Position numbers and translations under genes: made by a program
Notes under the pieces: model-generated
Seen by the model: only the letters and a program-made list of their open reading frames with translations
Databases searched by the model: none
What the model was told of the DNA's origin: nothing
From: Hymenobacter sp. B81
GTDB taxonomy: Bacteria; Bacteroidota; Bacteroidia; Cytophagales; Hymenobacteraceae
Length of the DNA: 64,000 nt
Direction of reading: 5' to 3'
Assembly (NCBI RefSeq): GCF_044628455.1
Contig: NZ_JBIYZW010000001.1
Span: 370,947-434,946, forward strand
Shown: positions 53,938 to 55,000 of the stretch, one piece after another
Layout: each line of letters starts with the position of its first letter
Position numbering within the stretch: the first letter of the stretch is position 1

Positions 53938-54039
53938 ACCCACGCGGTTGGGGGCGGCAGCATAGTCAAGCGGGCTGCCGCTCCCGCGCTACCAACTCTT
54001 TTTCGTCATGAAACCCACATAATCAACCTTTCTGCTGAC

Positions 54040-55000
54040 CGATTCACTTGGCCGGGTGCCGTAAACGGGCGCTGCTTCGTGGTTTGGTTTTCGGGTGCAG
54101 CGCAACGGTTGCTGCACCGCGCAGGTTCGAATCCTGCTGCCGGCGTCCAGCCCGCAAACGAAAACGTGGCGCACGTTACCGGTTGCCCCGGCCAACGAAT
54201 TGAGTCAGCATGGCATACAGCCAGTCGGGTGTCGTAGAGAAGCGCTACTTCGGGTCACAAGTTCGAATCTTGTTTGCCTGACAGCCGCTCCCGGCTGCGG
54301 GCAATAGCTCAGTTGGTAGAGCAGAGCGGCCCACGGGCCGTACGTTACGCTTGTCGCCTCATTACCCCGGCTGGCTGAAGCCATTCCATCGGGTGCCGTA
54401 GCTCAGCCTTACTTCGCGCCATTACCGCCCAGGTCGCGGGTTCGAATCCCGCCCGCCGGCCTTTCGGGACCGGCGGTAGCTCAGTCAGATAGAGCAGGAC
54501 AGGCCGGGCGCCCAGTTGCCCCGATGGATTTTCTCACTGTTTACCAGGTGCCGTAGGAGGGCGTTACTTCGGCGAGACCTTCGGGTTGAGCGGGTTCAAC
54601 TCCCGCAGCCTGCCGCTTCGGCAGCAGGTGGCGCACCTGATCCGTGCGCCAACAGCGCCTCCCCGCCGTTGCCCCGGTAAGCAGCTTGTTTTTTGATTGG
54701 TGCCGTAGCGCAGCCATACTTCGCGATTGGACGATGGGGTCGTGGGTTCAAGTCCCACCTGCCCGCGGGCAGTAGCTCAGGTGGTTAGAGCACATATGTA
54801 GGCTGCGCGCCTGTTGCCCGATCATGTTTTGCGGGCAGGCCCAGGTGTCGTAGGAGGGTCATACTTCGGGCCGGGGAGGAAGCACATTCCTTTCCGGCAT
54901 AGCAGACCCCCGCCGGTTACCCCTGGCCTGGTCCCCGCCCCGCGGCCGGATGCCATAGGTCCGCGCTCCTTCTGCTGACCGTTCATCAGCCCTGAAACCA
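54040..55000 (+). ncRNA. Tandem array of about six tRNA-like (Y RNA-like, YrlA-type) noncoding RNA units between rsr and rtcB
   Basis: Recurrent 5' motif GGTG(C/T)CGTA...(T/C)TTCG at 54055, 54228, 54392, 54547, 54699, 54844 (period 145-173 nt). tRNA T-arm mimics GCAGG-TTCGAAT-CCTGC (54121-54137), ACAAG-TTCGAAT-CTTGT (54257-54273), GCGGG-TTCGAAT-CCCGC (54436-54452), GCGGG-TTCAACT-CCCGC (~54590-54606), GTGGG-TTCAAGT-CCCAC (~54741-54757). D-arm mimics AGCTCAGTTGGTAGAGCAG (54306-54324), TAGCTCAGTCAGATAGAGCAG, AGCTCAGGTGGTTAGAGCA. None folds into a complete tRNA. Internal U-tract 54686-54695. Flanking direct repeats TCTGCTGACCG.TTCA at 54031 and 54971. Confidence 0.55.
54050..54180 (+). ncRNA. Best-defined single unit of the array (candidate Y RNA 1)
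   Basis: Long-range closing stem GGTTTTCG (54086-54093) pairs with CGAAAACC-like (54159-54165), enclosing hairpin 54094-54118 and T-arm mimic 54121-54137. This matches the Ro-binding-stem plus tRNA-like-domain layout of bacterial Y RNAs. Confidence 0.4.

Follow-up and report, generated by a model that had tools for sequence, protein, structure and literature searches.

Seven tandem, probable Y RNA genes between rsr and rtcB in Hymenobacter sp. B81

The rsr-rtcB locus

Y RNAs are the small partner RNAs of Ro60/Rsr, a protein that forms a ring, and those bacteria in which they have been characterised have some two apiece. In a 64,000-nucleotide (nt) stretch of the genome of Hymenobacter sp. B81 (contig NZ_JBIYZW010000001.1, positions 370,947 to 434,946, forward strand; hereafter the window), an array of structured RNA units lies between rsr, the gene for the Ro60 ortholog, and rtcB, which encodes an RNA 3′-phosphate ligase. 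An earlier sequence-only reading, made without database searches, had described about six units here and likened them to Y RNAs. The array starts 94 nt past the rsr stop codon, rtcB is 3′ of it, and all of these are on the + strand. Genes of the YrlA subfamily of bacterial Y RNAs (Chen et al. 2014; RF02553) are expected on the same strand as a Ro60 ortholog and about 4 kb or less from it, and the array is so placed. The gene order Ro, array, RtcB was also found at loci L001 and L032. The rsr product and the Hymenobacter sp. B81 TROVE protein are 100% identical. The features of the locus, with lengths in amino acids (aa) for the proteins and with T arm and D arm standing for mimics of those tRNA arms, are as follows.

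52408-53937, + strand: rsr, Ro60 ortholog (509 aa, TROVE and Ro60 vWA domains; Pfam PF05731, 1.2e-27; PF25045, 2.9e-11)
54033-54210, + strand: unit 1 (U1), T-arm-only class; box 54055-54081; 3′ box TTGCCCC 54183-54189
54218-54377, + strand: unit 2 (U2), YrlA type; box 54228-54254; T arm 54257-54273; 3′ box TTACCCC 54362-54368
54385-54528, + strand: unit 3 (U3), YrlA type; box 54392-54418; helix P2 54401-54408/54502-54509; 3′ box TTGCCCC 54516-54522
54537-54684, + strand: unit 4 (U4), T-arm-only class; box 54547-54573; 3′ box 54669-54675; from folds and the class alignment
54686-54695, + strand: U-rich spacer (TGTTTTTTGA) between U4 and U5; the T-run is kept in relatives
54694-54824, + strand: unit 5 (U5), YrlA type; box 54699-54725; helix P2 54708-54715/54801-54808; 3′ box TTGCCC 54814-54819
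54831-54938, + strand: unit 6 (U6), hairpin class with neither T nor D arm; box 54844-54870; 3′ box TTACCCC 54917-54923
54940-55034, + strand: unit 7 (U7), terminal class, degenerate; variant box GGAUGCCAUAGG... from 54948; 3′ box GUUGCUCCGG 55014-55023
55017-55045, + strand: terminator-like array end, a hairpin followed by TTTTTCTTC; predicted site 55017-55036 plus TTTTCTTCAT
55134-56537, + strand: rtcB, RNA 3′-phosphate ligase (467 aa; Pfam PF01139, 4.2e-80)

A conserved box in six copies

A repeat finder returned a 27-nt box in six copies, at 54055, 54228, 54392, 54547, 54699 and 54844 (spacings of 173, 164, 155, 152 and 145 nt). The positions and spacings given in the sequence-only reading were exact, and no further copy was found in the 64 kb by repeat finder, pattern or profile. 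The 25-nt degenerate pattern GGTGYCGTARNNNNGNNNTRCTTCG gave 6 matches in the 64-kb window and 0 in 100 shuffles, and the shorter GGTGYCGTA was matched 6 times against an expectation of 0.95. With a profile built from homologous boxes, the only significant matches in the window were six, every one on the + strand.

The box has the form GGUG(Y)CGUAG-N7-YUACUUCG, with a variable middle at positions 10-17. For comparison, a sample of 80 Ro loci from Bacteroidota genomes was used. The 5′ motif G(C/U)CGUA(G/A) is present in all six window boxes and is invariant in 289 boxes from the 80 loci; among them, 281 have U at position 19, 234 have A at position 20 and 279 have C at position 21. Published YrlA RNAs have a 5′ GNCGAAN0-1G motif, followed about 10 nt later by YUAY and then by V, T, AS and D elements (PMC4201824). 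Of GNCGAAN0-1G, the G, N, C and G and also the second A recur in the box motif, which has U where the first A would be, and the YUAC at box positions 18-21 (CUGC in U1) corresponds to the downstream YUAY of YrlA. Judged by sequence, the box resembles the published YrlA signature, with a departure at the first A.

A common stem module

When the segment 54021-55050 was folded as one molecule, it formed independent domains, one per box, each closed by its own ends. The six box-started RNAs are self-contained folds of 107-178 nt. The units had been expected to fold singly into a shared closing stem plus a tRNA-like domain; every unit does fold alone, with helices P1 and P2 shared, and the tRNA-like domain is present in U2, U3 and U5. 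The shared module consists of the closing helix P1, a bulged-U helix (5′ GG[U]GY / 3′ RCCC), a sequence-conserved asymmetric internal loop (5′ CGUA / 3′ GCnn(n)GUU) and then helix P2, after which a conserved YUACUUCG junction leads to an apical domain that differs by class. P1/P2, to which the box and a conserved UURCCC 3′ box contribute, is the stem in which the two ends of a unit pair. The box itself is not one single-stranded motif, its positions 10-17 being the 5′ strand of P2. A local GUAG/YUAC hairpin within the box, seen in minimum free energy (MFE) folds of single sequences, was rejected since the comparative alignment pairs positions 10-17 with the 3′ strand as P2.

Covariation was examined in two sets of units. 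The YrlA-type set held 77 units with both a T and a D arm, taken from the 80 Bacteroidota Ro loci, which were aligned with MAFFT and analysed with RNAalifold. Compensatory changes were seen in 27 of the 35 predicted pairs, 96.3% of cells were paired (40-47% when the 3′ partners were slid), and the covariation score of 0.684, versus 0.09-0.17, was reached by 0 of 500 shuffles. The T and AS stems of these units also showed covariation. The second set held 82 units that were T-only or armless, including U1, U4 and U6 of the window; the 5′ 37 nt of each unit was joined to its 3′ 40 nt in a fixed register. Here the P1/P2 module was 83.5% paired, versus 41-49% when slid, and P2, which had not been used for picking the 3′ partner, was 78% paired with compensatory changes in 8 of 8 pairs. 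Within the window, the purine in UURCCC (the 3′ box) and position 5 of the box covary, the pair being C-G in U1, U3, U4 and U5 and U-A in U2 and U6. Because P1/P2 covaries in YrlA-type and non-YrlA units alike, all unit types are shown to have one common stem module and different apical domains. In the broad sense, a Y RNA has its 5′ and 3′ ends in a long stem with a conserved bulged helix and a variable module opposite, and all seven units are built in this way.

Apical domains and the relation to YrlA

T-arm mimics are present in U1-U5 and D-arm mimics in U2, U3 and U5, in line with the modular mimics in diverged paralogs that the sequence-only reading had described. In U2, U3 and U5, a T stem-loop, a closed acceptor-like stem, UA and a D stem-loop follow one another in YrlA order, i.e., as a permuted tRNA mimic. 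The acceptor-like stem and D arm of U2 are at 54274-54304 and 54307-54322, with an extra hairpin at 54326-54341. In U3 the T arm, acceptor-like stem and D arm are at 54436-54452, 54453-54476 and 54479-54495, and in U5 they are at 54742-54758 (loop UUCAAGU), 54759-54772 and 54775-54791. U4 has a hairpin at 54569-54589 and a T arm at 54590-54606 (loop UUCAACU), and where a D arm would be it has hairpins at 54608-54629 and 54630-54650, an arrangement seen across the U4 class. The apical domain of U6 is a hairpin of 12 base pairs (bp) at 54870-54898.

U1 has an extended closing stem of 24 bp (54033-54056/54187-54210). Inside it, the helix GUUUUCG/CGAAAAC (54087-54093/54159-54165) encloses a hairpin (54094-54118), the T arm (54121-54137) and a second hairpin (54138-54156). 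The U1 class is conserved in 11 other loci (12 in all) with 21 compensatory pairs; both hairpins inside the internal helix, which flank the T arm, covary. The sequence-only reading had taken the helix at 54086/54159 for a closing stem of the kind bound by Ro. The helix exists and is conserved, but it does not qualify as the Ro-type stem, being internal and, in the U1 class, sequence-invariant.

At gathering thresholds, Rfam models gave zero matches in the 64-kb window. At relaxed thresholds, the Rfam YrlA model (RF02553) matched U3 (54429-54498, 40.9 bits, E=3e-7), U5 (54734-54796, 39.8 bits, E=6.6e-7) and U2 (54250-54325, 30.0 bits, E=4.4e-4). Each match is confined to the T arm, the closed stem and the D arm, the best one covering model positions 24-84 of 114. 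A comparison with YrlA had been proposed from the sequence, and it is the tRNA-like core of U2, U3 and U5 that the model covers. The YrlA tRNA-like domain is missing from U1 and U4, which have the T arm only, and from U6 and U7, which have neither arm; these four units are YrlB-like companions. Further marks of the YrlA subfamily are binding by Rsr in vivo and the modified bases pseudouridine 55 and dihydrouridine, made by TruB/DusA. ARAGORN found 0 tRNA genes in the window, and the Rfam tRNA model gave only a 16-bit match to a T arm, short of the cloverleaf of a tRNA gene with its end-paired acceptor stem and anticodon arm.

Unit 7 and the end of the array

The array had been given six units and an end at 54986. 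It has seven units and ends at about 55045, because U7 adopts the homologous fold and is followed by a terminator-like U-tract. The homologous fold is the unconstrained MFE structure of U7 (-40.7 kcal/mol), with an outer stem at 54940-54944/55030-55034, an apical hairpin at 54974-54990 and UUUUUCUUC directly after the closing stem. In relatives, the U7 class has the box CCGGAUGCCGUAGG…GCGYUACUYCGA and the 3′ box UGUUGCUCCGG, in which GGA/UCC for GGG/CCC is a compensatory change. Members of this class are the last unit before rtcB in 17 relatives, and their module is supported by covariation.

Copy number and age of the unit classes

By box profile, 50 Hymenobacter-clade loci have 2-10 boxes 3′ of Ro, about 155 nt apart (median 6), and the other 31 Bacteroidota loci have 0-8 matches (median 2). 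Copy number, which the sequence-only reading had singled out for comparison among related genomes, thus varies from 2 to 10 per Hymenobacter-clade locus. Among 328 units, 87 have T and D arms, 160 the T arm only, 78 neither arm and 3 the D arm only. Window units are 75-86% identical to their orthologs in other species, versus at most 68% over their length to their array neighbours. Orthologs of U3 were found at 54 loci and of U5 at 58 loci (76-85% identity for both), those of U4 at 18 loci, and that of U6 at L078 only. The block U3-U4-U5 is syntenic in six relatives at 75-80% identity. Because orthologs are more alike than array neighbours, the unit classes are old and maintained; they predate the species and are not recent duplicates.

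A separate case was seen in Rapidithrix thailandica (L061), where a four-box pattern occurs twice, at 7643-8150 and 8761-9238, with an offset of about 1118 nt. The offset repeat suggests a recent duplication of the whole four-unit block at that locus.

Transcription and processing

The spacers between units are 5-10 nt long, and although the genome is GC-rich, T makes up about 40% of the roughly 12 nt past P1. Promoter scans gave no promoter-like site between the units. The sigma-70 scan returned one sigma-70-like site on the minus strand and nothing useful, the sigma-54 signature TGGCAC-N5-TTGC was not enriched, and neither was the Bacteroidetes -7 motif TAnnTTTG, whose match at 50261 is part of a separate small gene. 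Polycistronic Y RNA precursors have been described in Mycobacterium smegmatis and Deinococcus radiodurans (PMC4201824). Because the Hymenobacter spacers are just 5-10 nt and there is no promoter-like site between units, we infer that the units are co-transcribed, likely by read-through from rsr. The precursor would be cut at the U-rich spacers, the units would be stabilised by Rsr, and transcription would end at the U-tract after U7.

The U-tract at 54686-54695, proposed earlier as an internal terminator, is present, and at the same junction the T-run is conserved in six relatives, L001, L002, L003, L007, L008 and L078. A weak terminator-like site is formed by 54668-54685 plus TTGTTTTTTG. The U-rich spacer between U4 and U5 is a candidate cleavage or processing site or a candidate leaky terminator.

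Identity of the array and rival explanations

We read the array as seven tandem bacterial Y RNA genes, partners of Ro60/Rsr, between rsr and rtcB, and put the probability of this reading at about 0.78. Several points weigh against it. Every unit scores below the Rfam YrlA gathering threshold (40.9 at best, versus 69 bits), and 11 related loci likewise give no match at that threshold; the 5′ motif of the box is GYCGUAG and not GNCGAA(N)G. In the U7 of the window, CAUA takes the place of the nearly invariant CGUA and the apical part is shortened; this copy may be decaying. No TAnnTTTG motif lies near the array, the nearest + strand match being at 50261, and a stable hairpin (53950-53985) between the rsr stop codon and U1 leaves co-transcription with rsr uncertain. 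Lastly, that the apical domains recruit different partners is something we purely infer.

The array might instead yield one long multi-domain RNA that is left uncut and serves as the rsr 3′ untranslated region, as the rtcB leader, or as a scaffold that loads several Rsr rings. Such an RNA would suit the 5-10 nt spacers, the lack of promoter-like sites inside the array, the presence of only one good terminator-like site, after U7, and the folding of 54021-55050 as a string of independent domains. However, known polycistronic precursors of bacterial Y RNAs are processed to discrete RNAs (PMC4201824), and U/A-richness, expected of cleavage sites, is a consistent feature of the spacers in this GC-rich genome. 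Further, a terminator-like site parts the array from rtcB, and independent genes fit better with the free variation of unit number and order by species and with the PARG gene that splits the L019 array. An uncut RNA is judged unlikely. A cluster of tRNA genes that have decayed or been rearranged, or of repeats derived from tRNA, unconnected with Ro, is a very improbable alternative. The T- and D-arm sequences are near the tRNA consensus and give weak matches to the tRNA and tRNA-Sec models, but ARAGORN finds no tRNA gene in the window, the arms are permuted (T, closed stem, D) as in YrlA, and units lacking the D arm or any arm retain the covarying P1/loop/P2 module. The array is also tied to Ro in 80 loci, and classes that are 75-86% identical between species fit poorly with decay.

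The sequence-only reading had also noted a direct repeat bracketing the array and had taken it as a hint that the array was built or mobilised as a block. The repeat, TTCTGCTGACCG, does exist and within the window occurs at 54030 and 54970 only, 12 nt being exact and followed by TTCA past a 1-nt indel. It is not significant, however: of 300 dinucleotide shuffles made from the region, 25 contain a repeat of at least 12 nt. It was not found at the equivalent places in relatives. Copy 1 is the 5′ strand of the U1 closing stem, and copy 2 is in the apical hairpin of U7, inside that unit. Because the rsr-rtcB position of the array does not change within the genus, where orthologous blocks of units are found, the data give no support to block mobilisation, and a repeat block assembled or moved as a unit is extremely improbable.

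Comparison with known Y RNA systems

For the tandem Y RNA genes proposed here, the closest known case is the rsr-yrlBA-rtcBA operon of Salmonella Typhimurium (Chen et al. 2013, 2014; RF02553). There too rsr and rtcB flank the RNAs, all on one strand, a 5′ GNCG.A-type motif is followed by YUAY, and a permuted tRNA-like domain and a hairpin-type companion RNA are found. Salmonella has two units, YrlA and YrlB, with the motif GNCGAA(N)G, whereas Hymenobacter has seven with GYCGUAG; just the Ro-type helix's 5′ strand is recognisable in Salmonella, while in Hymenobacter the 3′ strand, UURCCC, is also conserved. Unlike in Salmonella, the window showed neither an RtcR gene nor a signature of a sigma-54 promoter.

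In Deinococcus radiodurans, Yrn1, Yrn2 and the small RNAs a, b and d likewise cluster by rsr and come partly from a polycistronic precursor; their Ro-binding helix is conserved on both strands, and several of the RNAs have T-arm-like elements. The Deinococcus RNAs differ in lying upstream of rsr, in including only two accepted Y RNAs and in the arrangement of the tRNA-like part, and in comparison with them all seven Hymenobacter units have one clear common stem module. YrlA and YrlB of M. smegmatis come from a single precursor, and this YrlB resembles U1 and U4 in that the T arm is its sole arm mimic. In M. smegmatis an acceptor-like stem of 7 bp is an RNase P determinant, and the initial 7 bp of the acceptor-like stems of U2 and U3 match it; M. 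smegmatis differs in having two RNAs, upstream of rsr. The animal Y RNAs (e.g., human Y1, Y3, Y4 and Y5) are also a small paralog family with an end-paired stem and a variable effector loop, and their conserved bulged helix, GGUCCGA/UUGACU, may be set beside GGUGYCGUA/UURCCC of Hymenobacter. They differ in having no tRNA-like module and in being one to four separate Pol III genes.

A full-text literature search whose coverage excluded the review by Sim and Wolin 2018 and the supplementary tables of Chen et al. 2014 gave no publication that connects Y RNAs with Hymenobacter or with tandem arrays. Seven Y RNA genes at one locus, and up to ten in relatives, would be an unusually large and varied set, kept across the genus. 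Its conserved classes have the same Ro-type stem and a swapped apical domain, be it a full tRNA mimic, a T arm only or a plain hairpin. The array would provide, in a stress-tolerant genus, a comparative series that bears on the role of the effector end and on tRNA mimicry in bacterial Y RNAs. In the 12 sources tested (the window and 11 loci), the Rfam YrlA model at its gathering threshold misses the Bacteroidota branch, leaving the genes unannotated.

A possible panel of adaptors

The common module would be the Rsr-binding site, its 5′ strand, GGUGYCGUA, being comparable to GNCGAA of YrlA and GGUCCGA of animals. With lower confidence, and by analogy, the differing apical domains may tether or gate Rsr for different partners. 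One candidate partner is PNPase, following Deinococcus and Salmonella, and others are enzymes that bind tRNA or repair RNA, the adjacent RtcB being an example; one Ro protein could in this way be given a panel of adaptors during RNA-damage stress.

A wider proposal is that Hymenobacter and related Cytophagales keep a conserved panel of up to ten distinct Y RNA adaptors with one Ro-binding module, each class steering Ro60 to a different partner or substrate. The classes of the panel would be the permuted-tRNA class, at least two T-arm-only classes and hairpin classes, all keeping both strands of an animal-like bulged helix, and the setting would be an RNA-repair cluster (Ro, RtcB twice, sometimes a PARG macrodomain). 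We advance this proposal tentatively and regard it as on balance doubtful. If true, no known Y RNA repertoire would match the panel in size or diversification, and it would be a natural experiment on the role of the tRNA-like module.

Neighbouring genes and minor observations

A 12-bp GC-rich hairpin (53950-53961/53974-53985) lies just past the rsr stop codon, with no adjoining U-tract, and the segment 53986-53997 (GCGCTACCAACT) is nearly the reverse complement of the D-arm sequence of U2. At the other side of the array, a partial box, TTACTGGGTGCCG (55069-55081), lies 53 nt 5′ of the rtcB start codon; it gives no match to the box profile and was set aside as probably due to chance.

Between Ro and the proposed Y RNA array, some Hymenobacter species have a gene for a microbial-type PARG macrodomain (PF10021), as in L032 (7670-8584, 3.7e-44) and L019 (8058-8915, 1.3e-41). 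It interrupts the array in L019, and the window has no gene at that position. Downstream of rtcB, a 219-aa open reading frame (ORF) at 56580-57239 (+ strand) with no Pfam or NCBIfam match lies between the two RtcB genes of the window, and 3′ of it is the second RtcB paralog (551 aa, 57264-58919, + strand), the order being the same in L001. The N-terminal extensions of both RtcB proteins, about 160 residues long in the second, match no Pfam or NCBIfam family.

Directly 5′ of rsr, and also present in L001, is a gene for a PcfJ-like protein (433 aa, PF14284, 4.8e-12; 50924-52225, + strand). In L004, L006, L009 and L032-L034, the small-ORF element (the compact gene described next) lies only about 350-750 nt 5′ of Ro, with no space for the PcfJ-like gene. 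A compact gene 5′ of the cluster in the window (50237-50474, + strand) has a Bacteroidetes-type promoter-like site (TTTG at 50237, TACCTTTG at 50261-50268), a 29-aa ORF (50316-50405; MRRHFNQYLGMPSSLEDKIQPGFGAHATE) and a clean intrinsic terminator (50436-50474); Rfam matches there are terminator matches only. The DNA of the compact gene is 73-92% identical in 11 relatives, always just 5′ of the Ro cluster or the PcfJ-Ro cluster. In the relatives, the 29-aa ORF retains MRRHFNQY and IQPGFGA, the substitutions being at third codon positions.

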